Assembly (NCBI GenBank): GCA_964474825.1 | Contig: CAYYWQ010000001.1 | Coordinates: 820,152 to 884,151, forward strand | DNA: 64,000 nt | From: an uncultured Candidatus Saccharibacteria bacterium | GTDB taxonomy: Bacteria > Patescibacteriota > Doudnabacteria > UBA920 | Direction of reading: 5' to 3' | Shown: one piece after another, positions 24,870 to 64,000 of the stretch | How the letters are laid out: each line of letters starts with the position of its first letter | How positions within the stretch are numbered: position 1 is the stretch's first letter | The notes under the pieces: model-generated | Databases searched by the model: none | What the model was told of the DNA's origin: nothing | Seen by the model: only the letters and a program-made list of their open reading frames with translations | Position numbers and translations under genes: made by a program

Positions 24870-25003
24870 ATAAAAAAATCCGCCAAAGCGGATGGATAAT
24901 TTTATCTTCCCCGCGAGGGGCTAGAATTAGCACCGTATCGCCTTTCGGCGGATTGGTTGCTGGCAGGTCATTGGGCTAGTTCCCTAACTGCGCTCTTGAT
25001 AAA
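24870..25003 (-). promoter_or_regulatory. SAM-I (S-box) riboswitch with expression-platform terminator, in the metK leader
   Basis: Minus-strand RNA UUAUCAAGAG...UAGGGAACUAGCCCAAUGA...GCAACC...GGUGCUAAUUCU...GAAGAUAA matches the SAM-I conserved core. It is followed by the hairpin AUCCGC-UUUG-GCGGAU plus a U7 run (24873-24896). Confidence 0.65.
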
Positions 25004-25020
25004 TATTAAGTTGTAAAAAC

Positions 25021-47352: not shown

Positions 47353-48024
47353 TCAATGAACGTTCGGCGGACGAAATCTGGCAGACTTGATGTAAATGCC
47401 CGCGCCCTCCAGGTGGGGTGCAAGATAATCAGTGACCATCTTGCGAAACTCCTTCTGCTGGTTGGCGTCGTAGGAGTTGTAAAACCTCCCTAAGGCAGTG
47501 TGGTTCGCGTGCTCGAACTCGTTCAGATACCACTGCAGAGTGGCCTGCGGTGTCGCGATCCACTCCGTCTTACGACGCCGTAGGTAACCCTCCACCGTTC
47601 CCACGGTTTCCAGCTCAACTTCACAAACCAACTCCTTGACCTCAGGGTTCGGGTTAATGGGGCTTGAGCCAACCCGAGCCGCTGCCGTAAGGCGCGAGTA
47701 CACTTCTCTTGTTGTGCCCTTGAGACGTTTGTCCCACGACCACAGAAGGGCGCCGTTGGGAAAATCAACAACTACTCGGTCGGCCGACAGGATCACAGTT
47801 TGAGAATCAATTCGCGTAACCGCCTGCCACCAGCCCAGGACAGCGACAAAGATAAATAACACCATCCCTGTCAAAGCCAAGTCAAAGAAATCCGGCGCTT
47901 TTCTCTCTTCATTACAGTCGTCCCTGTACTTCTTATTCTGCCATCGGTAAACCATAACGGGAACCCCGATGCCGACAGCAAAAGCCAAAGCAAGTACCAC
48001 AAAAGTCGGGTATGCATCAAGCAA
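47353..48024 (-). CDS. Hypothetical membrane protein in a short GC-rich segment
   Basis: 223-aa ORF with 2 TM helices. Local GC is clearly above the flanks. Confidence 0.45.
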   Translation of the reverse strand: MLDAYPTFVVLALAFAVGIGVPVMVYRWQNKKYRDDCNEERKAPDFFDLALTGMVLFIFVAVLGWWQAVTRIDSQTVILSADRVVVDFPNGALLWSWDKRLKGTTREVYSRLTAAARVGSSPINPNPEVKELVCEVELETVGTVEGYLRRRKTEWIATPQATLQWYLNEFEHANHTALGRFYNSYDANQQKEFRKMVTDYLAPHLEGAGIYIKSARFRPPNVH

Positions 48025-49023: not shown

Positions 49024-50232
49024 TTACTTCATCTTCTTGCGAATGAAGGCGGGGATGTCCAGTTCGTCGTCTGAGGCAGAGGGATCTTCTGCGGTTGGTT
49101 TAGTAATGGGACGAATGGGCTGGGGTTGGAACGGCTGCTGCATGGGCTGGGAAGGCTGGGGGTTAAACAAAGGCTTCCTGACTTCAGTCGGCTGCAGGGG
49201 CCTGGCTTCCAATTTTTTAGTTTCCTCGCGGGTAGGAAGCTGCACCGGCATGGGACGTTTGTTGCCTTCGTCAAAACCCGTGGCAATAACAGTAATGCGG
49301 ATTTCGTCGCCCATGGCCTCTTCTACCACCGCGCCAAACTTTACTTTGGCGTCCGGGTCTATACTCTTGGTAATAACTTTGGCGGCTTCGTCTATTTCAA
49401 ACATTCCCAAGCTGCTGCCGCCGGTAATGTTAAACAACACTCCCCTGGCGCCGTCTATTGTCATTTCAAGCAGCGGAGAATTAATAGCCATACGAGCCGC
49501 GTCTTGCGCGCGGGTTTCACCGCTGGCTCTTCCAATACCCATAAGGGCCGTGCCCGCGTCTTGCATTATGCTGCGCACGTCCGCGAAGTCCGCGTTAACA
49601 ATTCCGTGGGTTGTAATTAAATCGGAAATACCGGCAATGCCCTGGCGCAAAACTTCGTCTACTGTTTTAAAAGCTTCCATGAGGGAAGTTTTTTTGTCTA
49701 TAATTTGAAGTATGCGGTCGTTGTGAATGGAAATTATGGCGTCTACTTTGTCTTTTAAATTGTCATAACCTGCCTCGGCAACTTCCTTGCGCTTGCTGCC
49801 TTCAAAAGTAAACGGCTTGGTTACAACTGCCACTGTGAGCACGCCTTTATTTTTTGCAAGCTCGGCTAAAATAGGTGCCGCGCCTGTTCCTGTGCCGCCG
49901 CCCAAACCACAAGTTATAAAAACCATGTCAGCGTTGTCTACAACTTCTTCCAGCTCCTCTACGCTTTCTTCTGCCGCCTGCCGTCCGAGTTCCGGATTCA
50001 TTCCCGAACCAAGGCCTTTGGTAATACTTTTGCCAATATGGACTTTGCGGTCTGCCTGGTTGTTGTGGAGCGCCTGGGCGTCGGTGTTAACCGCAATAAA
50101 TTCCACGCCGCGGATACCCAACTGGCTCATGCGGTTAACGGCCGAAGTGCCGGAGCCGCCAATGCCTAAGACCTTAATTCTGGCAAAAGTTTCGATTTTT
50201 GGTTTCACTTCCATTGATTGGTGTTTTTTCAT
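49024..50232 (-). CDS. ftsZ: Cell division protein FtsZ
   Basis: VLGIGGSGTSAVNRM (T1) and GGGTGTGAAP (T4). Confidence 0.9.
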   Translation of the reverse strand: MKKHQSMEVKPKIETFARIKVLGIGGSGTSAVNRMSQLGIRGVEFIAVNTDAQALHNNQADRKVHIGKSITKGLGSGMNPELGRQAAEESVEELEEVVDNADMVFITCGLGGGTGTGAAPILAELAKNKGVLTVAVVTKPFTFEGSKRKEVAEAGYDNLKDKVDAIISIHNDRILQIIDKKTSLMEAFKTVDEVLRQGIAGISDLITTHGIVNADFADVRSIMQDAGTALMGIGRASGETRAQDAARMAINSPLLEMTIDGARGVLFNITGGSSLGMFEIDEAAKVITKSIDPDAKVKFGAVVEEAMGDEIRITVIATGFDEGNKRPMPVQLPTREETKKLEARPLQPTEVRKPLFNPQPSQPMQQPFQPQPIRPITKPTAEDPSASDDELDIPAFIRKKMK

Positions 50233-50469: not shown

Positions 50470-53400
50470 CTAAGCTGCAGCTGCTACCGAAACCAATTCT
50501 CTAATATTGTAAGCATTCACAATCTTGGGTTTAATATTCCCATCTTTATCAACAAGAGAATTTGGCAAATAAGCTTTAGCTTCCGTTGATAAGACAACAG
50601 GCTGGCCTTCAATTAAAGCCTTGGAAAGCTCGTAACCAAACCTGTCAGCGTCATGTTCGTAATCCATTATTGCCATTAGTACTTCCATAAACTGAGGGCG
50701 GGGGCGTTCCTTCTTCCCTTTTTCGCGGCCTTCCAGTTTTTCCACTAAAGGCTTTAAGGCCTTGCGGTTAACAGCGCTCTTGGCAAAATCTTCAAAATCA
50801 ATTTCAAACTTTCTTTGAAGTAATTCTAAAACTTCTCTTTCCCCACTATAGGCTTCTAAAGGTATTTTGGGGTAACCTTTCTCTTCTTTTGAATAAACAT
50901 TGTCTAAAACTTTTCTGGCCAACTTTTCTGTAATAGCTTCGTTCAAAGCCCTACCCCGCTCGCGAATATTTTCATTAGCCCTTCTGACCATTTTTATGCC
51001 GCCTCGTCGCGGAAGATAGGCCGAGTCGCCGGGTTTTTCCGTGGCAAAGCGCCAATAATTATTAACTGCCGTGGCATGAATGACTTCGTGCGCTACAATG
51101 TGTTTAATTTCCATAATAGTCTGCTCAAGGGAGGTAGTTTCTTGCACGAGCAAATCCACGTTAACAAAGACTTCGCCCTTCTTATTAAAGAACAAACCGT
51201 AAGTATCATAGCCGCTGGTTTCAGCCTGGGCCTGGTACTCGTACATATTAACCAAGTGGATTTTTTCTATGCCGGGCAATTCACTGCGCCCCTCTTTGCC
51301 GTATTCCTCAAAAACTTCATTAACTTTGTCCAGAGTGAACTGGACAATTTGACGCAACTCAACAAGTTTTTCATTTTTGTTGAAATCGTAATTGCTTTCT
51401 TTTACAATACGCTCTAAAAACTTAATCTTTTCTTCGCGATTAGGAATACCATTTAGCTGGGCAAGATCTTTCTTGTCCGCATAAATGCCAGGCTTGCCCA
51501 AGTTGTCCAGAATATATTCCGCGATTTGGCGGTCATTTTTGAATGGGAATTTTTCCGGATAATCTTTACCAAAATCTTTTTTGTCGCCTTTAATTTTTTG
51601 GCCCCGCGTATCCACGACTACATCACCTTTACCGGTTTTAATCTTCCTGTCTGTAATTTTCTTTTTTATCTCGGGCTCATCGGGGTCATCATCATATGAA
51701 CCGTCTTCCAAATTGCCCAATCTTGGTTTAATCTCTTTCCCCTTGCCGTCCTGGATTTGTTTTTTGTTTGTTTTTGGGTCTAAAATTTCATAGCCCTGAC
51801 CTTCATGACCGCCGATCTTCTCCTGTTTCTCCTGTTTCTCCTGTTTCTCCTGTTTCTCCTGTTTCTCCTGTTTCTCCTGTTTTCCGCGTTTATAAATTTT
51901 TCTGTCAGGCAAAATAACCGGGGTAGTCCAATCATCACGCTTTATTGGGCCGTCGCTGGAGGGACCAGGTTGAATAATTCGGTCATCCCCAACAACAGGC
52001 TCCTCAGGCACTGGCGGGAAATACCCCTCGCCTTTTACAACAGAAGTAGCCAAGGTGTCAAAGTGTCCATCTTTGTCCTGGCCAATTTCCAAATACTTGG
52101 CTAATTGCTTGCCGTCGCTGTCAAAAAATGCTTTTCTAATATTTTCGTCGAATACAATATTACCCTTTGCGTCAACATGGCCGGCAATAATTCCTTCGTG
52201 GGCCTTATTCATGGCCTCGGTGGGAATAATCCTCACAACCAAATTTTCATGGAAAGTGCTTAAAAACTTCTTGGCTTCTTCTTGGTAATGCTCATGCAAA
52301 TTAACCAAATTATGCACAGCCTCTTGCAAATCTTCCGGGGCTGAGTCATCGTCGTAATCCTCGGCGTCAAAATTCGGGAATTTTACTTTTAGCTCGTTCT
52401 TAGCTTCTATTAGTTCCTGCATTTGGTTCTTTAAACCTTCTGGCATTAAATGCTGGAAGCGGCTGTCCACGGTCTGGTCCCAATTTTTACCTAACTCGTG
52501 GGTTTCCCCGCGGATATTTTTGGCAATATTTGCCAAAGCATTGTGGTAACTAAAAATAACCTTGTCACCCTTAGCTTCATGCATTAACTGGCCTTGCAAC
52601 TCTTTACCGGAATGAATATGGGAGCCGGCCGCAGTTTGTTCCGCGGTTTCCATATCGTGATTATGATGCCAGTCAAAATGAAAGATCTTGGTTATGCCCC
52701 AATTCTTCTTCCAGGCCTCGCCGGACATTAGTGGTCTCATTTCAGTATGAGTATGGTTAGTGAGTATTTCTGTACCCTTACCGCCTACTCCAGCCGCGCT
52801 CATTTCCCATGGGTGCTGGGCCAAATCTTTTTTACTCCAATGTTTAACTATTTTTTCCAAAGTAGTGCCGTGTGTTTGGAAATAATGCTTCATACCAGCC
52901 CAGTGGAATTTATCGGCCATAAAACCTAGGCCTTTGTTCAATGCAAACTGCCCCAAAACACCGCCCACGCTGCCCATAAGCGCTCCACTAACAGCCCTCT
53001 TGGTTGCTTCCCAGCGGCGGAACTTGTCAAAGTCCTTGTCTTTTTCGTTTATGTCTTTAATAAGTTCCTGGCGCACCGCCAAAGTAAACTTGTCTAAATC
53101 GGCTTCTTTTAGTCCCGTTGTCTTTAAAATTTCTGTAATTGCCAAACGCAAATCTGTTTCCGCAACTTCCGTAGTGCCGTATTTTTTACCCTGCTCTTCG
53201 TTTAAGTAAAACAAATCTACATTGTCTTTGCCTTTAGCTTCACGCATTTGCCAACGGCCCATAACTCCGGCCAAAGTTTGTTTTTCGGCATCGCTTAAAG
53301 CTGCTTTGCCTTTTAAGGTGTTTAAAGAAGCAATGGCATCTTCAAAACTCATTAAACTGCTGTATTCCCGCTCTTTGGTTAACAACTCGCTCGTCTCCCC

Positions 53401-55509
53401 GCCTAAAGTTTTTTGGCGCTGTTCCTGCGCCATGTCGTATTTCAGATCTTTACTGCGTTTGCGGTATGCCCAATACGCGCCCATAGCGCCCCCGGCAATT
53501 AAAGGCGCGGCAAAAGACACACCAACACCCAAGCCCACCAACCCGCCAGTCACGGCCAACTTACCCAAACGGCGGCCTGCTTGCCCGCCAATAACGCCTC
53601 CTATTACACCCACAGTAAATGGATTGGCAACAATCCTGCCAAGCAAGCGGTTGTCTTCAAACTTGTCTTGCAGCCGTTCCATTAAAGTCAAAAGCCCTTT
53701 GGGTTTGTTGTTAGCCAAGTCACGCTGCTGCAAACCCAACTGGAAATTTATATCCATACTGCCGGCCACGTGGTCCATAATGGCTTTTTCATTTTCCGGA
53801 CCATGTTCTTTAACTGCCTTGTCCACTTCTGCTTTAACTAAATCTTTGTAGCCTTCGGCCAAATTATAAAAATTGCTGGCAAACAGCCTTTTCTCAACAT
53901 TTTTTTGGACTTCGTTTTCCCTGACCTTATTGCCTTTTTCATCAACCGCCCATTTTTTGTCTTGTAGCAGCGGGGCAATTTTTTCCTTAACATACAACTC
54001 AACTGCGTCGCGTCCGGTTTGCCCTGTAAACTTATCGCCTAAATCGTCCCACTTGCCTTGCTGGTGCCTATAAAACAATTCGCCCGCGGCCGCGGCTAAA
54101 TTTGGGTCATTGGAAATTTTTTCACCAAGCTCCTGCTGGGCGCCGTAAAGCTCCTGCTCATACTGCACCACAACTTTGTCTAAAATTTCAAAATAATCTT
54201 TTTTGTCAGCATGAGGGCCATTTAAACCCAAAGAACCGTGCGCATATTTATTTTCAGCGCCAACTAAACGGCCCTCAATGGCTTTGAGCAGGTTGTTGTC
54301 TGTCTGAATTTCCTTTAAAGCTTCGTTGTAAAACTTTAAGCGGTAATAATTCTCGGTTAAACTGCGCGCCTTGCGCATAAACCAGTTAGACTTTTCGAAA
54401 TGATTAGTCAACTGTTCCTCAGCCTTAGTCCAGGCCATGCGTTTGGCAACTTCGGAGATGTCTATAATAAAAGCGGTCTTGGCTTTTTCTATTTTCTTAG
54501 GGTCCTCAATTTTTTTAGGATCCTCCACCTTTTTGGGATCCTCTATCTTCTTAGGATCTTCAATTTTTTTGGGGTCTTCGATCTTCTTTGGATCTTCTAC
54601 CTTTTTAGGGTCCTCAATTTTTTTAGGATCCTCCACCTTTTTGGGATCTCCCGTTTTTTCTTCTTCCTCCGCCTCTAAATCCATTTCACGGCGGTGTTTT
54701 AAAATTTCCATACCGGCTTCGTAATTGCCATGCTCACTGCCTGTGTCGCGATAATCTAACGAAACCAATTTGGCTTCGTGGCGCGTGCGCAAATTTTGCC
54801 GCTCACGCTGTGGATCTTCCCAAACATTTGGGTCTTCTCCATGTTGTTTGGTATAGTGCTCTTCCCAATATGTTTTACTGTTTTTTTCTAAATCTTTTGC
54901 CAGGTCTTCCAAAGCGCTTCCCTGCAGCATGCCTTCTTCAGCCTCCTCCTCTGCCTTTTTCCAAGCCTGGTCCGCAACATCGTACTGGCTTCCCCAATTG
55001 GCTTTTTCTATAACTTCAAAAGTTCCTTGATATTTTTCCCATAATTTATCGCGCTTTTGTTTCAGATCAGCTAAATTTTGCTTAACTTCATTCCTGACTT
55101 CTTGCCCACGCTTTCGCAAAATACCAATGGCTTCGTCTACCGGAATGCCTTCTTTTTGGTTATACCCCGGCTGGCCTCCAAAACCTTCAACAGCCACATT
55201 TATTTTTCCGTCTTTACCCGCTAGTTTAAGTCCCCCGTTTATGGAATCTATGGTATGCTCCAGGCGCTTTCTGTCCCTGCTGCCGTCCGGAAAAACCTGG
55301 CGCAATTTTTCCAGTTCGCTTACAGTGCGGGCCAGTTTTTCCCTGCGTTTTTCGTTTTCTTTTTTCTCCTTGGCTTCCCGAGCTTTGTCTTTTTGAGTTT
55401 GGCGTTTTTCTTCGGCGGCACGCTGCTCCCGGCTGGGCCTGTGTTCACGGTCCGAGTTTAAAATAACTTTTTTTTCTTCGTGATGCGGCCCAGAGTTTTC
55501 TTTGGACAT
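50470..55509 (-). CDS. Giant 1679-aa protein: charged coiled-coil N-terminus, (E/K)DPKKI and QEK tandem repeats, Gly-zipper TM pair, His-rich region, C-terminal HExxH (HEVIH) putative zinc-peptidase-like domain
   Basis: ORF. HEVIH is encoded near 51078-51092. TM segment VGVIGGVIGGQAGRRLG...GLVGLGVGVSFAAPLIAGGAMGAY. Confidence 0.65.
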   Translation of the reverse strand: MSKENSGPHHEEKKVILNSDREHRPSREQRAAEEKRQTQKDKAREAKEKKENEKRREKLARTVSELEKLRQVFPDGSRDRKRLEHTIDSINGGLKLAGKDGKINVAVEGFGGQPGYNQKEGIPVDEAIGILRKRGQEVRNEVKQNLADLKQKRDKLWEKYQGTFEVIEKANWGSQYDVADQAWKKAEEEAEEGMLQGSALEDLAKDLEKNSKTYWEEHYTKQHGEDPNVWEDPQRERQNLRTRHEAKLVSLDYRDTGSEHGNYEAGMEILKHRREMDLEAEEEEKTGDPKKVEDPKKIEDPKKVEDPKKIEDPKKIEDPKKIEDPKKVEDPKKIEDPKKIEKAKTAFIIDISEVAKRMAWTKAEEQLTNHFEKSNWFMRKARSLTENYYRLKFYNEALKEIQTDNNLLKAIEGRLVGAENKYAHGSLGLNGPHADKKDYFEILDKVVVQYEQELYGAQQELGEKISNDPNLAAAAGELFYRHQQGKWDDLGDKFTGQTGRDAVELYVKEKIAPLLQDKKWAVDEKGNKVRENEVQKNVEKRLFASNFYNLAEGYKDLVKAEVDKAVKEHGPENEKAIMDHVAGSMDINFQLGLQQRDLANNKPKGLLTLMERLQDKFEDNRLLGRIVANPFTVGVIGGVIGGQAGRRLGKLAVTGGLVGLGVGVSFAAPLIAGGAMGAYWAYRKRSKDLKYDMAQEQRQKTLGGETSELLTKEREYSSLMSFEDAIASLNTLKGKAALSDAEKQTLAGVMGRWQMREAKGKDNVDLFYLNEEQGKKYGTTEVAETDLRLAITEILKTTGLKEADLDKFTLAVRQELIKDINEKDKDFDKFRRWEATKRAVSGALMGSVGGVLGQFALNKGLGFMADKFHWAGMKHYFQTHGTTLEKIVKHWSKKDLAQHPWEMSAAGVGGKGTEILTNHTHTEMRPLMSGEAWKKNWGITKIFHFDWHHNHDMETAEQTAAGSHIHSGKELQGQLMHEAKGDKVIFSYHNALANIAKNIRGETHELGKNWDQTVDSRFQHLMPEGLKNQMQELIEAKNELKVKFPNFDAEDYDDDSAPEDLQEAVHNLVNLHEHYQEEAKKFLSTFHENLVVRIIPTEAMNKAHEGIIAGHVDAKGNIVFDENIRKAFFDSDGKQLAKYLEIGQDKDGHFDTLATSVVKGEGYFPPVPEEPVVGDDRIIQPGPSSDGPIKRDDWTTPVILPDRKIYKRGKQEKQEKQEKQEKQEKQEKQEKIGGHEGQGYEILDPKTNKKQIQDGKGKEIKPRLGNLEDGSYDDDPDEPEIKKKITDRKIKTGKGDVVVDTRGQKIKGDKKDFGKDYPEKFPFKNDRQIAEYILDNLGKPGIYADKKDLAQLNGIPNREEKIKFLERIVKESNYDFNKNEKLVELRQIVQFTLDKVNEVFEEYGKEGRSELPGIEKIHLVNMYEYQAQAETSGYDTYGLFFNKKGEVFVNVDLLVQETTSLEQTIMEIKHIVAHEVIHATAVNNYWRFATEKPGDSAYLPRRGGIKMVRRANENIRERGRALNEAITEKLARKVLDNVYSKEEKGYPKIPLEAYSGEREVLELLQRKFEIDFEDFAKSAVNRKALKPLVEKLEGREKGKKERPRPQFMEVLMAIMDYEHDADRFGYELSKALIEGQPVVLSTEAKAYLPNSLVDKDGNIKPKIVNAYNIRELVSVAAAA
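51820..51891. repeat. 9-bp tandem repeat (CTCCTGTTT) x8, in frame and encoding (QEK)n within the giant gene
   Basis: Seen directly. Confidence 0.7.
54488..54656. repeat. 18-bp tandem repeat, about 9 units, encoding (DPKKIE)n within the giant gene
   Basis: Seen directly: TTTTTTAGGATCCTCCACC-like units. Confidence 0.7.
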
Positions 55510-55560: not shown

Positions 55561-55887
55561 TTAGGCGCCTACGTAAACTTTTTTAAATTTTTCCATTTCT
55601 TCCGCAACGACTGCCTGAAAATCCGGCACCCTGGCGCGCAAAAATTCCATAATTTCCGTCTGAGTCGCGCCTTTGTCTACCAAAACTTCCAGCGGCTGGA
55701 CATCTTTTTCTTCCAGTTTCTTAAACATAGCCTGGAGCAGCCAAGTTTCTAAACGCACTGCTAAATCTTGCGTCATTTGCACATGCAGCTCTTTTGGCAC
55801 TTCACGAATTCCTTTTTCCCACAAGCAGGAATCTAAAAACGCTTCCAAGGCGGGATCAACAGACACTTTTGTTTTATTTTCGGCCAT
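55561..55887 (-). CDS. Hypothetical protein (about 108 aa, internal Met start preferred)
   Basis: ORF. The start was chosen at MAENKTK. Confidence 0.35.
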   Translation of the reverse strand: MAENKTKVSVDPALEAFLDSCLWEKGIREVPKELHVQMTQDLAVRLETWLLQAMFKKLEEKDVQPLEVLVDKGATQTEIMEFLRARVPDFQAVVAEEMEKFKKVYVGA

Positions 55888-56058
55888 AAAAAATGTATTA
55901 ATGGCAATTTTCTTTTTATATAACGCAACTATAGCATATTTTGGGCAAAAAGAAAAGGGAGGCACGTGCGCAAAGCGCAGGCGATCTCCCCTTCCAGTTT
56001 TTCTATTAGATCGGTAGGTTTGTTGGCAGTGACCTGTCCGATTCAATCTTTAACAACG

Positions 56059-58029
56059 TTACTTCTTGTCCTTGGAATCCGGCTTCTTGGCCGGTTTTTC
56101 CTTTGGCGCCGGAACATACAGTTCCGGGTAAAGCCGCGCAGCAGCCCGCAGCGCTTCCTTCCGAGAAGACCTGCTCGTGCCTTTCGGCTTGAGCTTATCC
56201 TGAAGCAAGGCCTTAGCGGCTGTGTCGGTCCGGGCAATCTTCTTTCCCGTGTCGCCGGTCGGCGACAGGTCAGTTTCGATCTTGGCGACTTTGGCCGCCA
56301 CCGGCTTCAACTCCGCCTCGATTTGCTCATTCGTGTACTTCCTTGCGTCGTACAAAATGAGCGACCGCTCGGTATTGCTGAGCGATCCGGTAGCGGTTCC
56401 GACCACGGGCGCATACTGGGCAATTAAAGCCCTGAAACCCGCCGGGTCAGCCGCAGCGACCTTTTGCAGGTCAGCGAGTGTAACCTCGTCTCCCCCTGCA
56501 TCAATCGCCTCCTTGATCTTAGACTGAAGGGACTGAAGGGCCTTCATCCGGCCCTCCAAGTCCGCAACCTGCGAGCGGGTTTTCACATCAACCACCACCT
56601 TGGTGAGGGTGGTAGTCTTGGTCGGCACCGGAGCAGAAACGGAAACTGGCGGCCTTGCAGCAAGCTGCTTGGCCACATAGCTCCGCATCATTTCCGTCGC
56701 TCCATCCACAACTCCCGCCTGGTCAGGCGGATAGAAGCGGAGGAGCCGACCAAGATTCTGCCCGTTCACCACCATGTTCGGCCGGGAGGCCGGAACATTG
56801 CGGTCAACAGTCAGGTTAAACTCGGTCCGGCTGCCGGACGAACGGATGTTGGCAACGCGAACGCCGGGAACAGCGCGCCCCGTCTGTACATCGGTAAACG
56901 ACACAGACGAAGCGCTGGTCGGCATACCGTCACAAACAAAGTGGCGGGTGTAACCGGTTGCCAGGTAAGGCATACCGGTCTGGAAATCGCCGCACTCGGC
57001 TGAGAAGAGGCGGGTCGCCCCAACCAGCGTTAACACTGCGATCATTGCGACCTTCGCGCCGCCATTACCGCCATTTCCACCGCCAGCGAGTGGCGGCTTG
57101 TTGGAGTCGTCTGCCTTGGGCGGGTCGGTCGGAGGCGGGGGCGGTGGAGGAGGAGTGTTCGGAGTCGCCAAGGTCACTTTAGCCTTGACGAATTTTGTAG
57201 AATCCGACTTGAGGGCGGCCGTGACGGTCACGAACCGCTCTTCCTCCAGCTTATCCGGCGCGGTGTATTCACCGTCGTCGGAAATCTTCCCGGCATCGTC
57301 CCCTGCGGGACGCAGCCACCAGAAAAGCGGTTCGGTCGCGCCAGTCACGGTGAACTTCTGCTTTTCGCCGGCCTTCAACGTGATCGTCTGGGGCGAAATC
57401 AGAAGGGTAGCAGGAGGCGGAGGTGGAGGCGCAGTGGTGGTAGCCGGACGAACCATGAACTTCACGGTCGCCGTTTTGGTCGGATCGAACACCGAAGCCA
57501 CCGTGATGGTTTCTTCGGTCTCGGCCTTCACGTCCGGAGTCGTGTAGCGACCGGTCAGGGGTGAGATGGTTCCGTGAGCGGCGGTCCACTTAACATCCGT
57601 GGAAGCCCCGCCAACAGCGTCAACCTCTGCCTGAAAATTCCAGGTCGCGCCCGCGGTAATCCCGCGCATAGGCGAAGCCTTGATGCGAACTCCGCGAACT
57701 GCAGGAGCCGCAGGCGGAACGACCGGAGGCGGAGTGGGACGGACCGGGGGAGCAACAGGAGGTGGGGGCGGAGGAGTAGGACGAACAGGCGGCACGGGCG
57801 GGGCAGACGGTTTGCGGGTAATCAGTTTGTAAATCAGCCACACCGCAAACAAAATCGCCGCGAGCAATAGTAGCCCGTCCCAGGGAATTTCCCACCCGCC
57901 GCCAGTCCCGGACTCGGGAGCAATGGCGGTCGGCACGGGGTCGTAAACCTGGGCCATCAAAGACACAAAAGCCATGAGGATGCCGGCGAGGAGCCGGGTC
58001 CAGATACTGATAAGGGTAATGCGCTTCAT
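56059..58029 (-). CDS. GC-rich island protein: two-TM, proline-rich (PPVPPVRPTPPPPPP) linkers, Ig-like segments, large C-terminal domain
   Basis: The ORF start was moved to MKRITLISIW, which has SD TAGGAGA 7 nt upstream. Confidence 0.5.
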   Translation of the reverse strand: MKRITLISIWTRLLAGILMAFVSLMAQVYDPVPTAIAPESGTGGGWEIPWDGLLLLAAILFAVWLIYKLITRKPSAPPVPPVRPTPPPPPPVAPPVRPTPPPVVPPAAPAVRGVRIKASPMRGITAGATWNFQAEVDAVGGASTDVKWTAAHGTISPLTGRYTTPDVKAETEETITVASVFDPTKTATVKFMVRPATTTAPPPPPPATLLISPQTITLKAGEKQKFTVTGATEPLFWWLRPAGDDAGKISDDGEYTAPDKLEEERFVTVTAALKSDSTKFVKAKVTLATPNTPPPPPPPPTDPPKADDSNKPPLAGGGNGGNGGAKVAMIAVLTLVGATRLFSAECGDFQTGMPYLATGYTRHFVCDGMPTSASSVSFTDVQTGRAVPGVRVANIRSSGSRTEFNLTVDRNVPASRPNMVVNGQNLGRLLRFYPPDQAGVVDGATEMMRSYVAKQLAARPPVSVSAPVPTKTTTLTKVVVDVKTRSQVADLEGRMKALQSLQSKIKEAIDAGGDEVTLADLQKVAAADPAGFRALIAQYAPVVGTATGSLSNTERSLILYDARKYTNEQIEAELKPVAAKVAKIETDLSPTGDTGKKIARTDTAAKALLQDKLKPKGTSRSSRKEALRAAARLYPELYVPAPKEKPAKKPDSKDKK

Positions 58030-58540
58030 CGAGTTATCTCCTAAAAAGGTTGCGAACTCTCCACGGACCCTATGACATCTAGGACCCAAAATATCTCGCT
58101 AAGGCACTCACGGCCTAGCACAGCAATGGGTAAAGTGAGTGCCCTTTGCGGTAACCTACCCATAACAAAATGAGTAAACAGCCGCAAAGGACAGCTCACA
58201 AAAAAACAAAAAGTAACGTTTATATCCCCCTTACAAAATTTTTAAAGAACTTTGGAGCCAAAAACTACGGGCTCACGGCTGGCTTCCCTAAAAAAGCCAC
58301 CCACAAGCCCACAATTAACTATTCAACTTTGACCTAGTATTATACACCTTTTTAGGCTTTTTGTCAAGGTCTAAACCAAAAACTCCTTTAAGTTTAACAA
58401 ATTCCTCTTAATTGAAACAAGAACCCCAAACTTATCTTCCGGCCGCGTAGGCAAGAAAAGAAAGTTTGGGGTTCTCTTGGTAATGATGTACTGGTCTGTT
58501 CACGGCCGCCGAGGGGCGGCGTGTCGCCGGAAATTAGTGG

Positions 58541-60298
58541 TTAGGGATCGACGAATCTTGCGGCAAGGCCGGAGACGGTGGCAATGGCCCCGTCGGTAAA
58601 CTTCTTGACGGCGCTGGGCTCCACATATGGAACAACCAACTGAGCAAACTGTTCGTCGCCCAGGACTGCTCGGGCCCAGCGCACACGGCGGAAATCGTCG
58701 AGATTGGTGGGGTTCTTGCGTTCGTAAAGAATCAAGTTGTCCAAAGACTCGGCCGCGACGTCTACCGTCGTTTTGCCGCCTTCGGAAAGTTCTAACACGA
58801 ACTTGGACGGGAAACTACAGAGTGCTCCCTGACAAAGTTGGAAGTACAATTGCCGGAACCCTTCCGACAGTTGGTGCTTCCTAACAAGAACAGCAAGACC
58901 GTCCAGGCTCTCCTGGAAGTCTGAGTAGGTAATAGCGAAATTGGGCTCACTGCCCATGGAGACAACAACCGCGTTGGCGAGCTCAATCAGTTTGGCGGGC
59001 TCGCCGACGAAAAGCGTTTTTGCCGTAAGATTGTCGTCCTTGCTCGCAGCGACAACAAACTTTTTGAAAGTTACTGCCGTGGGGTCGGAGTCGGTTTTGA
59101 AAATCCGCTCCTTCAGGGAAGTAAGCTGACCGGTCGAGAAACCGCGGTATTGAAGCGGAGCCTCGGGAGCCGGCACGCCTTGCGCAACTGCGACGAGGAT
59201 CTTCTCCTCTGCGGGAGCCGGGGAAGGAGCAATACTCTGAACGTGCGCTCGCCTTTTCCAAAGGCGGGGCGGGTCGACCGAAACGGTTTCAACGTCGGAT
59301 GTCGCGAGCAAAACGGCAAACGTAGGGTTAGCCTCCGGTTCCGTCCTGCCGGTTACAATCTTGAAGTCAGGAGCGACATTATCGCCGCCGAAGTTGCGGA
59401 TTTGCGAATAGAGCACCTTCATCATATGAGGCGTCCACTTGCCGGTGCGGTAAACAAGGGCGCGTTGGAGAATTTTGCCGCGTTCAAAGTAGTTTGGGAT
59501 TGCTCGCGCCCAAACCTCGGCCACGGTTTTTTCCACGTCCCCAATTTCGGAGATTGCGGGCAGCTCACCATACACAGGATACAAGTAGCCGCCGCCGTCC
59601 TGGTAAATAAACCGCTGGACCAAGTCGACAATGTCAATCTGGTCCGGGTTGAGCACAATGCGTCCTACGCAGTGGCTCAAGATTTGCTGGACGCGCCGGT
59701 CAAGCTCGGAAAACGCCTCGTCTTCTTCCATATCCACGAGGTTCTTGTCGGTGTCGAGGGCTGTTGTGTCCACGGCAATAATGCGCACGCCGAGACCAAC
59801 AACTTCCGCGAGCTGCTTTTTGTAGCCCTCAAGTTCCCCGGGGGAAACCGAAGGGTTGTCGCTGGAAGGGACGCTGACCACAACAATCGGGACAACCCCT
59901 TCCTGCAGCAGCAGCTCCACCATAGGCTTAAGCGTGCCCGTTCCGGTCCCCTTGCCCAGGGCAAAGAAACTGACGGCAATATCTAGCGGCTGAAGCGCCG
60001 CCGAAACTTTGTCGCGATGAAATTCAAACGCTGCCCGCGCGACCTCGGGGTTAAAGCCTGTGCCGTCGCGGCCCGTGCCGTCTTCACCTGTTCCCAGCAG
60101 CACGGAAGAGAACTCCAAACCGAATTCCCCGGCTTTAAAAAACACTTCCACTGCTTCAAGTGTGGCGTGATTTGTGTCGAGCGATGCATACCGCTCGGCT
60201 GGCCATCCGCTGCTTCTTCCGTAAGCAGCAAAGCGTTTGGCCATTTGGTTGCCGCCATAGCCGGAGCCAATGACTCCGACCGTTAATCTATTGGACAT
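58541..60298 (-). CDS. Divergent tubulin/FtsZ-superfamily GTPase, TubZ-like (585 aa with a long C-terminal extension)
   Basis: T1-like GVIGSGYGGNQMAKRF. SLDTNHATLE (compare FtsZ NTDAQAL). T4 GKGTGTG. T7-like LNPDQIDIVD (N-x-D-x-x-D). SD GGGAGGGG 4 nt upstream of the ATG at 60296-60298. Confidence 0.65.
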   Translation of the reverse strand: MSNRLTVGVIGSGYGGNQMAKRFAAYGRSSGWPAERYASLDTNHATLEAVEVFFKAGEFGLEFSSVLLGTGEDGTGRDGTGFNPEVARAAFEFHRDKVSAALQPLDIAVSFFALGKGTGTGTLKPMVELLLQEGVVPIVVVSVPSSDNPSVSPGELEGYKKQLAEVVGLGVRIIAVDTTALDTDKNLVDMEEDEAFSELDRRVQQILSHCVGRIVLNPDQIDIVDLVQRFIYQDGGGYLYPVYGELPAISEIGDVEKTVAEVWARAIPNYFERGKILQRALVYRTGKWTPHMMKVLYSQIRNFGGDNVAPDFKIVTGRTEPEANPTFAVLLATSDVETVSVDPPRLWKRRAHVQSIAPSPAPAEEKILVAVAQGVPAPEAPLQYRGFSTGQLTSLKERIFKTDSDPTAVTFKKFVVAASKDDNLTAKTLFVGEPAKLIELANAVVVSMGSEPNFAITYSDFQESLDGLAVLVRKHQLSEGFRQLYFQLCQGALCSFPSKFVLELSEGGKTTVDVAAESLDNLILYERKNPTNLDDFRRVRWARAVLGDEQFAQLVVPYVEPSAVKKFTDGAIATVSGLAARFVDP

Positions 60299-60953
60299 CT
60301 TTCCCCTCCCTAAAATCAAAAAGTAACCAAACCTGGTTTGTCTCCACGGCCCGCGCAAGGCGAAAACGTGGATCCGAAAATTCTTTTTCAATCAGCCTTA
60401 ACTCTTCGAGCGCGTGGCCTTGAAAGCCATGGCCCAAAGTTGGGTAAGTGCGGGACGGGTTCGGTCTGAGGCCAACCCAGACACCAGGCAATTCCAACCA
60501 CGGCTGAACGCTATAGCTTAAAGGGTCCCGGTGTGCGGGACTCGACCGGCGAACAAAAAATTGCTCGCCAATAAGCTCGCCGTGTTTGACCAACACCTCT
60601 CGAAGATACGTGTGAGCAGGTGGTGGCCGCCAATTGTATATATTTTGCGCCTGCAAGTCAAAACTCAAACCCTTTGTAAAACAGGGCTGAGCAAAATCGA
60701 CCGGAAAGAACCGCAGACTTGCTTCCGCAAATGCCTGATTTGCTAAAAGCAAGGAACGTATAAAACTATCGCGTTCGGGACCGTTAAGAACTGCGTGGTC
60801 GAAACGGATTACTCCATCCCGAACCACAAAATTCTGTTCGTAATCCGTGTTCCGGTTATGGTCGCGAAGGAACCGAAGCAAAAATTCGAGGAACTCCCTC
60901 AAAGCCTGCTCCAGCTCCCGGCCATTCCGGGAAAAACCAGACATCATATTCAT
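60288..60953 (-). CDS. Hypothetical protein, translationally coupled upstream partner of the TubZ-like gene
   Basis: 11-nt overlap (ATGTCCAATAG). SD GGAGG 6 nt upstream of the internal ATG. Confidence 0.4.
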   Translation of the reverse strand: MNMMSGFSRNGRELEQALREFLEFLLRFLRDHNRNTDYEQNFVVRDGVIRFDHAVLNGPERDSFIRSLLLANQAFAEASLRFFPVDFAQPCFTKGLSFDLQAQNIYNWRPPPAHTYLREVLVKHGELIGEQFFVRRSSPAHRDPLSYSVQPWLELPGVWVGLRPNPSRTYPTLGHGFQGHALEELRLIEKEFSDPRFRLARAVETNQVWLLFDFREGKDVQ

Positions 60954-60981
60954 TGGTTTCCTCCACCAATTTGTCAAAGTT

Positions 60982-61010
60982 CCAGAGAGATATTATAAAC
61001 AGAAGCAGGT
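60982..61010 (-). promoter_or_regulatory. sigma70-like promoter TTGAAA-17-TATAAT for the two-gene TubZ-like operon
   Basis: The reverse complement of 61005-61010 is TTGAAA and of 60982-60987 is TATAAT. Confidence 0.45.
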
Positions 61011-61182
61011 ATTATTTCAAGGTATATTATTGGCAAATTGCGCTTAAATATAAGATAAAATTTTTTAACCCTCTTTATAAAAATAAAGATTCCTCGCAGC
61101 AGAGTTATGAATGCGGAACCTGTGTTAGCTCCTCGGCTCGCTTATCCAGATTTCCGTTGGAATAGACACACCTACGTCGCTA

Positions 61183-61241
61183 ATAAAAAAGGCCGAGTGC
61201 GGGATCAACCATCTTAGGAATGGGATCCGCGCGCACTCGGC
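61183..61241 (-). terminator. Strong intrinsic terminator downstream of the 61288..62375 gene
   Basis: GCCGAGTGCGCGCGGATC...GATCCCGCACTCGGCC hairpin, followed by a T6 run on the minus strand. Confidence 0.5.
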
Positions 61242-61287
61242 GTTGGAAGGTTTGACGATGCTTAACGCGTAACTAAAAAGTATAGCG

Positions 61288-62375
61288 CTATTTAATTGGA
61301 ATTATTGGCCCGCCTCGACCGCCGCTTGCGACGGGAGGCCTACGGGGTACGGGATCGCGAGAGCGATCCTGCTCCTGTTTCAACGCATTGATTTGCGTTG
61401 TCAGTTTGTCATTCTCATGTCTACCCGCCGCCCGGACTTCGGACAGCTTAAAGTAAAAAACAATTGACACGATTACTAACCCTGAAGCTAGTACAGTGAA
61501 AACTGCGACAGCAACTCCAATCCACAAAGGCGGGATCGGCGCCCTGGTAACCACCAGGTCGTAAACCACAGTGTATCCAGTATGCTCGATCTGGAAACCC
61601 GCAAATCCTTCGCCCAGAATTTGAACAAGCATCTGCCCGTTTTCCTGGCGAACTTTTACCACATCAAACCCCGTCTGTTGGTCTAACTTCCCCAACTCCA
61701 CGGTAAAAGTATCCCCCACTTTCAGACTCATATGTTGAACAATCATATGATGGGACGGAAGCCCAACTTCTACCGGCTCTACGGTTTTAGGGTCAATCGT
61801 AATAATCATCTCTTTCGAATTATCTTGCCTGGACACCACGGTGTCGGAAGCGGCCGGTGGGGCCGCCAAAGTCTTAGGCTGGGAAATAACGAAAGTGTCG
61901 CTCGGTGCTGGGATGGTGGCAGGAGTGGCGGACGCCGAAGTTTTCGGGGCCGCGGGAGAAGCAGACTGAGGAGCCGGGGAAGATGTTTTCGCTACCACGG
62001 CTTGGGAGGAGGTTGAAATTCGGGAAGCAAAAAACACATTCGCTTCCTTAAAAAACAGGTTCGCCAGTTTCGGGTCTGCCTTAGCGTCTACCGCCAGCCA
62101 AAACTCCGGCTGGAGATGGGCGTCTTCGGGATTAATGAACTCACCCTTTGCCGGCTTTTGCACGGCGGGGATAAGGTTCGCGAAGTTGCGAACCTGCGGG
62201 AACAACTGGCCGCAGTTGTGCTGCAACCACCGAAGTCCATCCAGGGCGCCTTCGCCCTTGCTCACATCAACCGAGAGTCGATAGCGTCCGTCCACGGGCG
62301 ACGAACATTCTTGTGCCGTAGCGGCCGGAGCCGCCAAAAGCGCAAGGAAAAACAACAAAGCTATACGCATCGTCA
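61288..62375 (-). CDS. GC-rich island protein: signal peptide, Ala/Pro/Ser-rich linker, C-terminal TM anchor and basic tail
   Basis: Start chosen at MTMRIALLFFLALLAAPAATA, with SD AGAGGA. Confidence 0.5.
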
Positions 62376-62706
62376 TATTGTTCCTCTTTATGGGACTCAA
62401 AACTTCCCGACTAATCGTCTCGCTTGTGTTCGTAAACAACAAACAAAAACCAAACAATAAGCCCTAATGGGACTCCTTACTATATCAAAAAACCTCCAAA
62501 ATTGCAAGAGCCGGAAGTTTAAAAATTTTATATTTAAAAAAATTAGAGTAAAACGATTTAAACCATTTTTTCACTTTACCCACCAAAAGAAAAACTGCGG
62601 CTTGCTGGTAGGCAGGCCGCAGTCGTCCAGATAAGTTGTTACTTAGAGGTTGTCGCCTTTCTGAACTAAGGCGCCCGTTTAGGCCTAACGGGAAGGTTTC
62701 GCGTGT

Positions 62707-63714
62707 TTAGGGGCAGGGTACGGGTACGCCGTTAGCCCCAGTGAAGGCAACGCAGGCGGCTGTCTTAAACAGTGCCGGAGCACTAGGCCAGAGCCACCAT
62801 GCGCCCCCGACAATAGCCGCGCACTCAAGAATGGGCAGACCAATTCCGTAGAGGGATTTCTCCCGCGGGAAGCATGGGATGGGAACTTTGTGTCGCTTCT
62901 TAGTGATCACAATTTCCTCTTCGGGGGGTGGAGACTGAACAACGGTAAGTGAGCCCCGACAGACAGTACGCCTGCCCATGGAGTCCGTAACCCGGAACGC
63001 AATACTGGTGTTCTTTTCGGCTTTAACGGTTATAGAACCGCCTTGGCCGATTTCTTCCCAGTCGTCCCTCGACCACTTACCCGCCGCGCCGTCGGCATCG
63101 CCACGAATGTAACCTTCAAACGTGACACTGTCGCCGAACTTGGCCGTAGCAGCCGAAGGCCGGATTTCACATTCCGTTTGAGGCGGAATGGAAACAACTT
63201 CTGCGGGCGGAGGGGCCGGTACTTCCACGGGTGGTGGAGGCGGCTCTACGCGGGGTGGAGGGGCCGGAGCAGCCGGCGGCGGCGGAATGATGGGAATACT
63301 AACGACTCGCGGATTTCCGCAAACCTTCCCATTCCCGTCCTCGGGCCCAAGGTCGAACATGTCGCGGCCTTGACTATCAACGGCCACTTTTGTTCCTTTC
63401 GGGCGGATTTTCCACAACCACTGTTTCCCCGCCAAGGTCCAAGTGCACTCATTGGTTGGCTGAACCCGGAACTTAATGCCCGCCGGTACGAACCGAAACA
63501 AATTCACGAAGTGCGGTTCGTACGGTTCCTGCGCTGCGCACTTGGTGAGGTCCGGAAGCTCGGTTGGCCACACGACCTTTACACGCGAGGCCTTCTCCCA
63601 AGCGGAGTAACGGTCGTCGGACTCAATGGATGTCGTCTGGGCGAAGGCCGAAACCGACGCCAGAAAAAACAACGCGAAAACTACCGTAAGAACGGTAGTA
63701 CTTACTTTCTTCAT
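62707..63714 (-). CDS. GC-rich island protein: secreted, poly-proline segments (IPPPPAAPAPPPRVEPPPPPVEVPAPPP)
   Basis: Signal peptide MKKVSTTVLTVVFALFFLASVSAFA. SD AAGGAG. Confidence 0.5.
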   Translation of the reverse strand: MKKVSTTVLTVVFALFFLASVSAFAQTTSIESDDRYSAWEKASRVKVVWPTELPDLTKCAAQEPYEPHFVNLFRFVPAGIKFRVQPTNECTWTLAGKQWLWKIRPKGTKVAVDSQGRDMFDLGPEDGNGKVCGNPRVVSIPIIPPPPAAPAPPPRVEPPPPPVEVPAPPPAEVVSIPPQTECEIRPSAATAKFGDSVTFEGYIRGDADGAAGKWSRDDWEEIGQGGSITVKAEKNTSIAFRVTDSMGRRTVCRGSLTVVQSPPPEEEIVITKKRHKVPIPCFPREKSLYGIGLPILECAAIVGGAWWLWPSAPALFKTAACVAFTGANGVPVPCP

Positions 63715-63857
63715 GCTGATCTCCTTGAAATTTTCTGAAGTCCAAATTTACGGCCCGCTTGGACCGCTGTACTGCTGTGCCAGCGGTCTGCGAGCACATT
63801 ATAAGTGCTATGTAATTCATAACGCTCATAACGCGCCGGCAGATACTAGAACTCTTG

Positions 63858-63886
63858 ACTATAACAAAAAAACCGCTTTTTGTCAA
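63858..63886 (-). promoter_or_regulatory. sigma70-like promoter TTGACA-17-TATAGT at the right border of the GC-rich island
   Basis: The reverse complement of 63881-63886 is TTGACA and of 63858-63863 is TATAGT. The -35 box is embedded in the hairpin AAACCGC...GCGGTTT. Confidence 0.45.
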
Positions 63887-64000
63887 TAGACAATGCGGTT
63901 TTCACTCATTATTAAAGCCTAAATTGTGGCCTTTAAGGCAAGAATGATTTAAGCCACTTCTTGGCTTTGGCAACGTTTGGGTTACTTAGTACGTTTTTCA

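Follow-up and report, generated by a model that had tools for sequence, protein, structure and literature searches.

Results

A GC-rich block with a two-gene operon lies between ftsA and ftsZ

We analyzed a stretch of 64,000 nucleotides (nt) from the chromosome of an uncultured member of the Patescibacteria (contig CAYYWQ010000001.1), referred to here as the window, and found that a GC-rich block at positions 55960-63790 is situated exactly between ftsA, whose 3' end borders it on one side, and a DUF5663 gene, a giant open reading frame (ORF), and the canonical ftsZ on the other. The core of the block is a two-gene operon, referred to below as the cassette, in which a gene for a partner protein of 221 amino acids (aa) precedes a gene for a 585-aa FtsZ-like protein. 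All genes of the block are on the minus strand and are transcribed in the order of a 335-aa protein, a 389-aa ORF (362 aa from its probable start), the 221-aa partner, the 585-aa FtsZ-like protein, and a 676-aa ORF (656 aa from its probable start). A preliminary description of this DNA, made by a model from the letters alone, had placed the genes on one strand, which was right, but it counted six of them where the block holds five, and four proline-rich proteins with a signal peptide or transmembrane (TM) segment where there are three.

The jump in GC content reported in that description was confirmed by GC windows. The content is 0.545 inside the block and 0.432 over the rest of the window, and 2-kb windows reach 0.50-0.60 inside as compared to a mean of 0.432 outside (standard deviation 0.024, maximum 0.506). 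The left edge of the rise is sharpest at about 56070, and the borders of the block coincide with gene ends. Coding sequence alone carries the rise: the five block genes have a GC content of 0.50-0.60 and a GC content at third codon positions (GC3) of 0.52-0.67, as compared to a GC3 of 0.35-0.54 in the host, while the four intergenic spacers inside the block remain at 0.41-0.44. These spacers bear sigma-70-like promoters on the coding (minus) strand. The remainder of the window is ordinary chromosome, with genes for GroEL, MetK, RelA, ComEC, NrdR, and ribonucleotide reductase.

The partner gene (60288..60953, minus strand) encodes a soluble protein. The last 11 nt of this gene, stop codon included, are shared with the beginning of the FtsZ-like gene, and a Shine-Dalgarno sequence, GGGAGGGG, is present; the translational coupling claimed earlier is thus borne out. 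The operon has its own promoter-like sequence, TTGAAA-17-TATAAT, at 61020-60992 (60992..61020, minus strand) rather than at 60982-61010 as first described. Downstream, 3' of the FtsZ-like stop codon, a hairpin formed by a perfect 14-nt inverted repeat (58475-58420, minus strand) is the probable terminator of the two genes.

The FtsZ-like protein has a complete FtsZ core

The FtsZ-like gene (58541..60298, minus strand) had been described as encoding a tubulin/FtsZ-family GTPase with a long C-terminal extension, and this assignment held. The protein matched Pfam PF00091 (Tubulin) over residues 8-149 with 36.6 bits (gathering cut-off 33), which was its only Pfam match at E ≤ 1; FtsZ_C (PF12327) and Tubulin_2 (PF13809) were not detected by Pfam. 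In a search of the PDB, FtsZ chains were the best matches (E 8e-8), while TubZ and RepX were found at E ~0.6-1.2. When a five-member family profile was compared with an FtsZ profile by hhalign, the two aligned at 99.7% (E 1.2e-25, 307 columns) through residue 346, and this alignment takes in both the GTPase and the activation domains. The activation-domain call rests on the profile alignment; a single-sequence AlphaFold2 model of the full 585-aa protein had a predicted local distance difference test score (pLDDT) of 35 and was unusable. Residues 1-345, encoded at 59264..60298 (minus strand), thus correspond to a complete FtsZ core.

The nucleotide-binding and catalytic loops are intact. T1 reads G11-S-G-Y-G-G-N17, T3 reads G79-T-G81..P84, and T4 reads G115-K-G-T-G-T-G121, while T7 is Q220-I-D222-I-V-D225, aligned to the N-x-D-F-A-D of FtsZ. 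A motif alignment showed that T1, T3, T4, and T7 are kept in 8/8 full-length members of the family. The motifs quoted in the preliminary description are all present, and its T1, T4, and T7 do align to FtsZ, although its T7 ("NPDQID") was placed three residues off. From the profile and motif evidence, we conclude that the 585-aa protein truly belongs to the FtsZ/tubulin family of GTPases and is FtsZ-like rather than TubZ-like.

By the same kind of evidence it is not a canonical FtsZ, because it scores 32.1 bits against the equivalog model TIGR00065 (cut-off 295.2), FtsZ_C is undetected, and the FtsA-binding tail is missing. The C-terminal peptide D-I-P-x-F, which binds FtsA or ZipA, is absent from the 585-aa protein, which ends in …GLAARFVDP. 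The canonical ftsZ was confirmed at 49024..50232 (minus strand), where it had been described. Its product scores 407 bits against TIGR00065, is 83% identical to the FtsZ of L001 (one of the related loci introduced below), and has the C-terminal peptide DIPAFIRKKMK, the protein ending in DELDIPAFIRKKMK. The FtsZ-like protein is only about 25-28% identical to this resident FtsZ.

A novel C-terminal domain follows a proline/alanine-rich linker

Past residue ~345, the family alignments show a Pro/Ala-rich linker (residues 346-392; 59123..59263, minus strand), followed by a conserved domain of ~170-190 aa. Residues 393-585 with the stop codon (58541..59122, minus strand) comprise this family-specific alpha/beta domain and a terminal helix. 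The domain is kept across the family, and a model of residues 385-585 built from a seven-sequence alignment had a mean pLDDT of 86 and a predicted template modelling score (pTM) of 0.77, with a mixed alpha/beta fold; the terminal helix was modelled at low confidence. A Foldseek search of this model against the PDB and BFVD returned nothing below E 0.2. As modelled, the C-terminal domain is therefore novel, without a detectable structural relative in these two collections.

The hydrophobic moment of the terminal helix is 0.45 in the window protein and 0.57-0.63 in some relatives, while others lack the tail. As an amphipathic membrane-targeting helix, the tail of L002, L004, and P0005 is convincing and that of the window protein is weak, while L003 and L006 have none.

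The partner domain is fused to a membrane-spanning protein in some genomes

All full-length loci have a partner gene immediately upstream that either overlaps the beginning of the FtsZ-like gene or adjoins it. The partner of the window had no match in Pfam, NCBIfam, PDB, PADLOC, or PHROG, and no helix-turn-helix (HTH) domain was found by Pfam; the partners of all other loci were likewise without a match in these five databases. A word-indexed search with the partner profile returned three known partners only.

Two forms of the partner are present. The soluble form (214-237 aa) is found in the window and in L001, L002, and L003, with a mutual identity of 28-35%. The membrane form (395-452 aa) is found in L004, L006, L085, and L086, and has a signal peptide, an ectodomain, one TM segment, and a cytoplasmic tail; the L004, L006, and L086 partners have mutually related ectodomains. 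When the tails of the membrane partners (L004, L006, and L086, with L085 left out) were compared with the C-terminal half of the soluble partners, hhalign gave 90% (E 1.6e-6, 125 columns), a match that is significant only between profiles, direct comparison of the soluble partner with single membrane partners being weak or negative. Since the tails match the soluble partner, some loci have the partner domain as part of a membrane-spanning protein, and this fusion is the main clue for a system that acts at the membrane.

Other genes of the block and its flanks

The block neighbours of the pair encode signal-peptide or TM proteins. The gene closest to ftsA (62707..63714, minus strand; GC 0.578, GC3 0.607) encodes the 335-aa proline-rich secreted protein with a signal peptide, and is preceded by the promoter-like sequence TTGACA-17-TATAGT (63858..63886, minus strand; 11/12 matches, with a TG), for which the position first reported was right. 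Homologues are found in L001 (298 aa), L002 (228 aa), and L005 (284 aa), and the conserved C-terminal motif of the window protein is PIPCFPRE…GLPILECAA…WWLWP. In the family as a whole this motif reads PIPC(F/Y)PRE…G-x-GLPI-x-ECAA…WWLWP, and the genes of the family are, besides that of the window, those at 14227-15123 in L001, 13810-14496 in L002, and 3056-3910 in L005. The motif may serve as a signal for anchoring or sorting that is specific to this lineage. The proline-rich gene is upstream of the cassette in the window and downstream of it in L001 and L002, which indicates local rearrangement.

The 389-aa ORF (61288..62457, minus strand) has a signal peptide, an ectodomain, one TM segment, and a short cytoplasmic tail. 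Its probable start, MTMRIALLFF…, is at 62376 and gives a protein of ~362 aa. The tail is likely a coiled coil by our reading of the sequence, made without a predictor, and the sole Pfam match is a weak one to DivIC (E 0.26). A terminator-like hairpin is near this ORF, at 61210-61191. On the other side of the operon, the 676-aa ORF (56059..58089, minus strand) encodes a Pro/Ala/Thr-rich membrane or secreted protein and has a GC content of 0.604, the highest of the block genes. Its probable start, MKRITLISIW…, is at 58029 and gives ~656 aa. The protein is weakly similar to a 460-aa protein of L001, and Pfam gave sub-threshold Ig-like hints only. A perfect consensus promoter-like sequence, TTGACA-17-TATAAT (58339..58367, minus strand; 12/12 matches), precedes this gene and was missed in the preliminary description. 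Overall, 10 promoter-like sites were seen as compared to 4.0 ± 1.9 expected, and 8/10 are on the coding strand.

The upstream border of the block is the 3' end of ftsA (63936..64000, minus strand). The final 65 bases of the window encode the FtsA C-terminus …AKAKKWLKSFLP*, and their frame-2 translation corresponds by tblastn to the FtsA C-terminus of relatives (for example, the FtsA of L005); within the window the C-terminus reads …NVAKAKKWLKSFLP*. The downstream border is the DUF5663 gene (55561..55893, minus strand; PF18908, E 1.4e-7), which has a host-like GC content of 0.435 and is kept in L001, L002, and many relatives. It is located just upstream of the giant 1679-aa ORF (50470..55509, minus strand), which belongs to the clade-specific insert between ftsA and ftsZ, yet is not GC-rich. 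The giant protein has two central TM segments, a HEVIH (HExxH) motif near the C-terminus, and tandem repeats that are in frame: an 18-nt unit repeated 8 times at 54477-54666 (KK(V/I)EDP) and a 9-nt unit repeated 7 times at 51809-51898 (QEK). Many related Doudnabacteria have this pair of DUF5663 gene and giant ORF between ftsA and ftsZ, also where they lack the cassette.

The FtsZ-like/partner pair is extremely rare and found at several chromosomal junctions

In the following, W denotes the window locus, L001-L086 the related loci, and P-numbers the protein matches. When 1.84 billion representative proteins were scanned exhaustively with HMMER, 46 matches were returned at E ≤ 0.001, among which only P0002, P0003, P0004, and P0015 are full-length members. 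Two more, P0005 and P0007, are C-terminal fragments, and the remaining matches belong to ordinary FtsZs or to different divergent ones. Profile searches of the relatives' loci added the further divergent members L006, L085, and L086, so that the pair is present in about ten loci overall and is extremely rare. One of the protein matches, P0006 (711 aa), combines an FtsZ core with a long, charged C-terminal region that looks like a coiled coil and a hydrophobic C-terminal segment, as read from the sequence with no predictor; the C-terminal-domain profile gave no match to it, which places it outside this family.

Other searches returned little. A word-indexed protein search found only the query itself with the 585-aa protein, and itself plus a weak FtsZ-type match (P0047) with the family alignment; for both queries, crowding of the candidate lists by canonical FtsZ is probably behind the poor result. 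Pattern-based searches for the family in genome, metagenome, and viral contigs returned none, which is a weak negative, since the patterns were narrow and missed the divergent member L006, which is among the genome contigs searched. No relatives were found by tblastn in 50,697 phage (INPHARED) and 72,556 plasmid records, and the cassette had no match in IMG/VR; the 585-aa protein had no PHROG match at E ≤ 0.01. A role in anti-phage defence was considered and rejected, as PADLOC gave no match.

Proteins related to the window FtsZ (63-86% identity) carry the label Patescibacteria, in many cases Candidatus Doudnabacteria, and the sub-clade that hosts the variable region between ftsA and ftsZ is most likely Candidatus Doudnabacteria. 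In ~39/80 related species (loci L005-L084) ftsA directly adjoins ftsZ. In the closest relatives, 5 to >10 kb separate the two genes and hold DUF5663, the giant ORF, and, variably, proline-rich secreted proteins. The genes that fill this junction are fast-evolving and mostly unannotatable, and the junction is a clade-specific variable region.

Presence and absence were scored from loci with 10-kb flanks, so copies may be missed in some loci. Within the insert between ftsA and ftsZ, the cassette was found only in W, L001, and L002, in the same gene order. L006 has a divergent cassette 6.6 kb upstream of ftsZ, and these four are the only loci with the cassette near ftsZ. The closest relative, L005, whose FtsZ is 86% identical, has ftsA, proline-rich genes, DUF5663, and ftsZ, but no cassette. 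In L004 and L086 the cassette is located between fusA and tuf, and in L085 before hisS. The fusA|tuf site is a second ultra-conserved junction that holds the cassette; there, in the str/S10 ribosomal region, the membrane-partner cassette forms a GC-rich patch (L004 1442-7296 and L086 3351-11063; 0.54-0.59 as compared to 0.42-0.45). A conserved gene for a 111-115-aa protein (MDNLKRLIQLAKADGGKFFVIDE…) follows fusA in both loci.

All copies share a compositional signature

Every cassette copy and the genes that accompany it form a GC-rich patch (0.51-0.61) on a background of 0.42-0.47. We compared relative synonymous codon usage (RSCU) among these islands and their hosts. The correlation between islands of different genomes is r 0.44-0.78, whereas that between an island and its own host is -0.23 to 0.43, and hosts correlate with each other at 0.37-0.91. 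For the window island, r is 0.43 with its host and 0.56-0.77 with the islands of other genomes. The cassette proteins are only 25-35% identical between genomes in which FtsZ is 83% and FtsA 75% identical.

Two simple causes of the high GC content were rejected. Amino-acid composition cannot be the sole cause, as GC3 is raised too and the FtsZ-like protein is not proline-rich. High expression does not account for GC3 either, as tuf, fusA, and ribosomal genes of L086 have values of 0.32-0.42 as compared to 0.62-0.72 for the cassette. No closer GC-rich donor was found among the 1.84 billion representatives. The signature may come from an unsampled pool of GC-rich genes with which cassettes are exchanged at conserved junctions, or it may be kept up by a local selective or mutational regime.

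The preliminary description proposed horizontal acquisition without visible mobility genes. Its negative part stands: no integrase or transposase domain was found by Pfam in the window proteins, and a repeat search of window positions 40000-64000 found no att-like, flanking direct, or long repeats at the block borders. The nearest tRNAs are >29 kb from the block. Among the features expected of a genomic island, deviant composition and codon usage and variable presence are seen, while mobility genes, repeats, and a tRNA target are not. As to the acquisition itself, the accessory distribution, the foreign codon signature, and the use of other junctions agree with it, but the block is in the same place in at least two other genomes (L001 and L002) and is therefore not a recent private insertion. 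The cassette is thus accessory and compositionally distinct, yet syntenic in at least three genomes.

An origin of the block from a diversity-generating retroelement, an att site, or long repeats was rejected, as such repeats were not found; template/variable-type long repeats are also absent from window positions 40000-64000. A gene of the bAvd / 23S_rRNA_IVP type is located directly downstream of ftsZ in L001 (21741-21848); bAvd is an accessory protein of diversity-generating retroelements.

Three further features of the window are worth mentioning. A 223-aa ORF downstream of ftsZ (47353-48024, minus strand) has a GC content of 0.533 and a GC3 of 0.616, with a hydrophobic N-terminal stretch and no Pfam match. 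A 1209-aa ORF (12148-15777, minus strand) is also above background, with a GC content of 0.504 and a GC content at second codon positions of 0.524, and has no Pfam match. An S-adenosylmethionine (S-box) riboswitch (24899-25005, minus strand; 57 bits) is directly upstream of metK (23619-24797).

Discussion

We propose that, in one sub-clade of the Patescibacteria, a clade-specific variable region splits ftsA from ftsZ, that the block makes up the GC-rich part of this region, and that the core operon of the block encodes an accessory, membrane-tethered FtsZ-type filament system that does not serve DNA segregation; we see about an even chance that this is correct. The proposal builds on observations presented above, namely the family membership and intact motifs of the FtsZ-like protein, the operon structure, the conserved pair, the fusion architecture, the chromosomal context, and the compositional signature. 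The FtsZ-like protein would bind GTP and polymerize head-to-tail like FtsZ, with the T7 aspartates completing the active site of the neighbouring subunit. In place of the FtsA-binding peptide, a flexible Pro/Ala linker would present the novel globular C-terminal domain, which, together with the partner, may couple the filament to the membrane or envelope. In L004, L006, L085, and L086 the partner is a bitopic protein with an ectodomain; in the window, the neighbouring proline-rich proteins with a signal peptide or TM segment may substitute. The system would then organize an envelope structure or one associated with the division site, in parallel with the canonical FtsA/FtsZ ring.

Several points weigh against this proposal. 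That the protein polymerizes, that its C-terminal domain interacts with the partner, that the filament is tethered to the membrane, and what the system does in the cell are all points that we infer from sequence. The absence of the cassette from L005 means that it is dispensable, and its linkage to ftsZ is not universal, with L004, L086, and L085 carrying it elsewhere. The idea of a C-terminal amphipathic helix is weakly suggested by the sequences. In addition, the FtsZ-like and partner proteins diverge very fast, with 28-32% identity between the genomes whose FtsZ is 83% and FtsA 75% identical, which could reflect a relaxation of constraint or a conflict-type function instead of a structural housekeeping role. 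Fast divergence, patchy spread, and a foreign codon signature may leave room for an accessory or conflict-related role.

As compared to canonical FtsZ (TIGR00065; PF00091 and PF12327), the FtsZ-like protein shares the two-domain core fold by profile comparison, the T1, T3, T4, and T7 motifs including both T7 aspartates, and a place in the division locus beside ftsA and ftsZ. The two proteins differ in T4, which is GKGTG in the FtsZ-like protein and GGGTG in canonical FtsZ, and in the C-terminus, where the FtsA-binding tail D-I-P-x-F-(I/L)-R-K is replaced by the linker and the novel domain of ~170-190 aa. The FtsZ-like protein also has a dedicated, translationally coupled partner and evolves far faster, with ~30% identity as compared to 83% for FtsZ in the same genomes. 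It could instead be a regulatory, non-autonomous FtsZ paralogue that co-assembles with canonical FtsZ, caps it, or competes for its partners. The location within the ftsA-ftsZ locus and the full FtsZ core with its longitudinal-interface motifs would fit this explanation, as would the divergent second FtsZ reported in some genomes of the candidate phyla radiation (CPR) (Santana-Molina et al. 2023, PMC9871819). That study does not describe the architecture, partner, or context of the second FtsZ, and it places the extra copies of the few bacteria with two ftsZ genes outside the dcw cluster; the window protein is also highly divergent, but its gene lies between ftsA and ftsZ. However, the identity to the resident FtsZ is only about 25-28%, other members are located far from ftsZ, and the dedicated partner and novel C-terminal domain argue for separate assembly; the family profile scores the host FtsZ (60.7 bits) no better than unrelated FtsZs, which reach 94. 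We therefore consider a regulatory paralogue unlikely.

One option raised in the preliminary description was a plasmid- or phage-type segregation module, similar to TubZ/TubR/tubC or PhuZ, of an integrated plasmid or prophage, in which the GTPase pushes or pulls DNA by way of an adaptor bound to centromere repeats. There is a superficial likeness, since a tubulin/FtsZ-superfamily GTPase is encoded just downstream of a smaller partner gene, the block is atypical in composition, and different genomes carry the pair at different chromosomal sites. The claimed affinity to TubZ was not upheld, however: the likeness to TubZ in sequence is negligible (E ~1), and the TubZ and RepX structures match at E 0.6-1.2, as compared to ~1e-7 for FtsZ. 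The spacers were searched for a TubR-like gene, iterons, or tandem repeats, and none was found; Pfam gave neither an HTH nor any other domain for the partner, which in relatives is joined to a TM segment and an ectodomain. The cassette is chromosomal and flanked by the core genes ftsA, ftsZ, fusA, and tuf, with no replication, integrase, or structural phage genes present. The phage and plasmid collections and IMG/VR contained no relative, nor did the PHROGs, which are expected to include phage tubulin families. DNA segregation is thus very unlikely, and this reading is already largely refuted. The same description also raised the membrane-remodelling families FtsZl1 and FtsZl2 of Makarova and Koonin (2010), and a member or functional analogue of these would be consistent with the coexistence with canonical FtsZ and with membrane proteins as neighbours. 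In FtsZl1, the T7 loop and activation domain are not identifiable, a coiled coil and a helical C-terminal domain are present, and a vWA-domain protein is encoded nearby (PMC2875224). The CPR family resembles FtsZl1/Tubulin_2 (PF13809) in its FtsZ-like N-terminal domain, long non-FtsZ C-terminus, and membrane-protein neighbours, but it keeps T7 and the activation domain, and it lacks PF13809, a kinase or GTPase partner, and, apparently, a coiled coil; Pfam found no vWA domain in any neighbour of the cassette in the window, L001, L002, or other loci. Membership in FtsZl1 was accordingly dropped. FtsZl2 is closer in architecture, being a divergent FtsZ-like protein that keeps T1, T4, T6, and T7, has a C-terminal alpha/beta region without detectable relatives, and occurs beside a normal FtsZ, but reports of it are confined to Proteobacteria, where its gene neighbours are not conserved (PMC2875224). 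The CPR family has all T loops and a C-terminal alpha/beta region of its own; it is set apart from FtsZl2, by description, through its CPR host and its strictly conserved, invariably linked partner, and a member or functional analogue of the FtsZl families seems quite improbable.

Other alternatives concern the origin of the block. If the GC-rich segment had been joined from another organism by the assembly, an abrupt change in GC content would be expected, as is seen here. Yet the order ftsA-…-partner-FtsZ-like-…-DUF5663-giant-ftsZ recurs in two independent assemblies from other sources, the internal spacers have a host-like GC content and host-type promoters, and the edges of the block match gene ends, which makes a chimera almost inconceivable. 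The cassette might also be a selfish or conflict-related mobile unit, that is, a set of GC-rich genes that recombine at ftsA|ftsZ and fusA|tuf in the course of host-symbiont or phage-host conflict. Each copy is GC-rich (0.51-0.61, with flanks of 0.42-0.47), island codon usage is closer across genomes than to the hosts, the distribution is patchy among close relatives, the proteins are extremely divergent, and two different core-operon junctions are occupied. On the other hand, PADLOC gave no match, mobility genes and repeats were not found, no closer GC-rich donor is present among the 1.84 billion representatives, and the synteny of W, L001, and L002 fits vertical descent. We find such a unit improbable, and it would bear on origin and selection, which is compatible with a filament mechanism.

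Taken together, the preliminary description was largely right in what it observed and partly supported in its interpretation: the family and the second cytoskeletal module beside canonical ftsZ, here an FtsZ-family protein and partner operon in the division locus, were recognized, while the TubZ affinity and the segregation role were wrong. With its new architecture and partner, the family forms a new subfamily within the known FtsZ/tubulin superfamily, and we found no papers in the literature describing this FtsZ-like family, its partner, or DUF5663. One puzzle is that a single GC-rich codon signature is seen in all hosts although the proteins are ~30% identical, and that core-operon junctions are occupied without mobility genes; this pattern may point to a homologous-recombination route of cassette exchange in CPR genomes.

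The CPR, or Patescibacteria, are ultra-small and mostly uncultured episymbionts whose cell biology is almost unknown. Here, some of them carry a second FtsZ-type polymer candidate with an unrecognized C-terminal fold and a dedicated partner that spans the membrane in some genomes. A more far-reaching possibility, which we hold only tentatively and judge rather unlikely, is that this is an unrecognized, self-contained transmembrane cytoskeletal system of the CPR, in which an FtsZ-derived filament is linked through the C-terminal and partner domains, free or membrane-fused, to an extracellular domain. Such a system would travel between genomes as a GC-rich unit to the ultra-conserved operon junctions ftsA|ftsZ and fusA|tuf without a recognizable recombinase and might build or position a surface structure for episymbiosis or serve an alternative mode of division. 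The membrane-tethered filament system proposed here, if true, would represent a new wiring of a tubulin-family filament to the cell envelope, and its two genes would be a tractable target for expression in E. coli.

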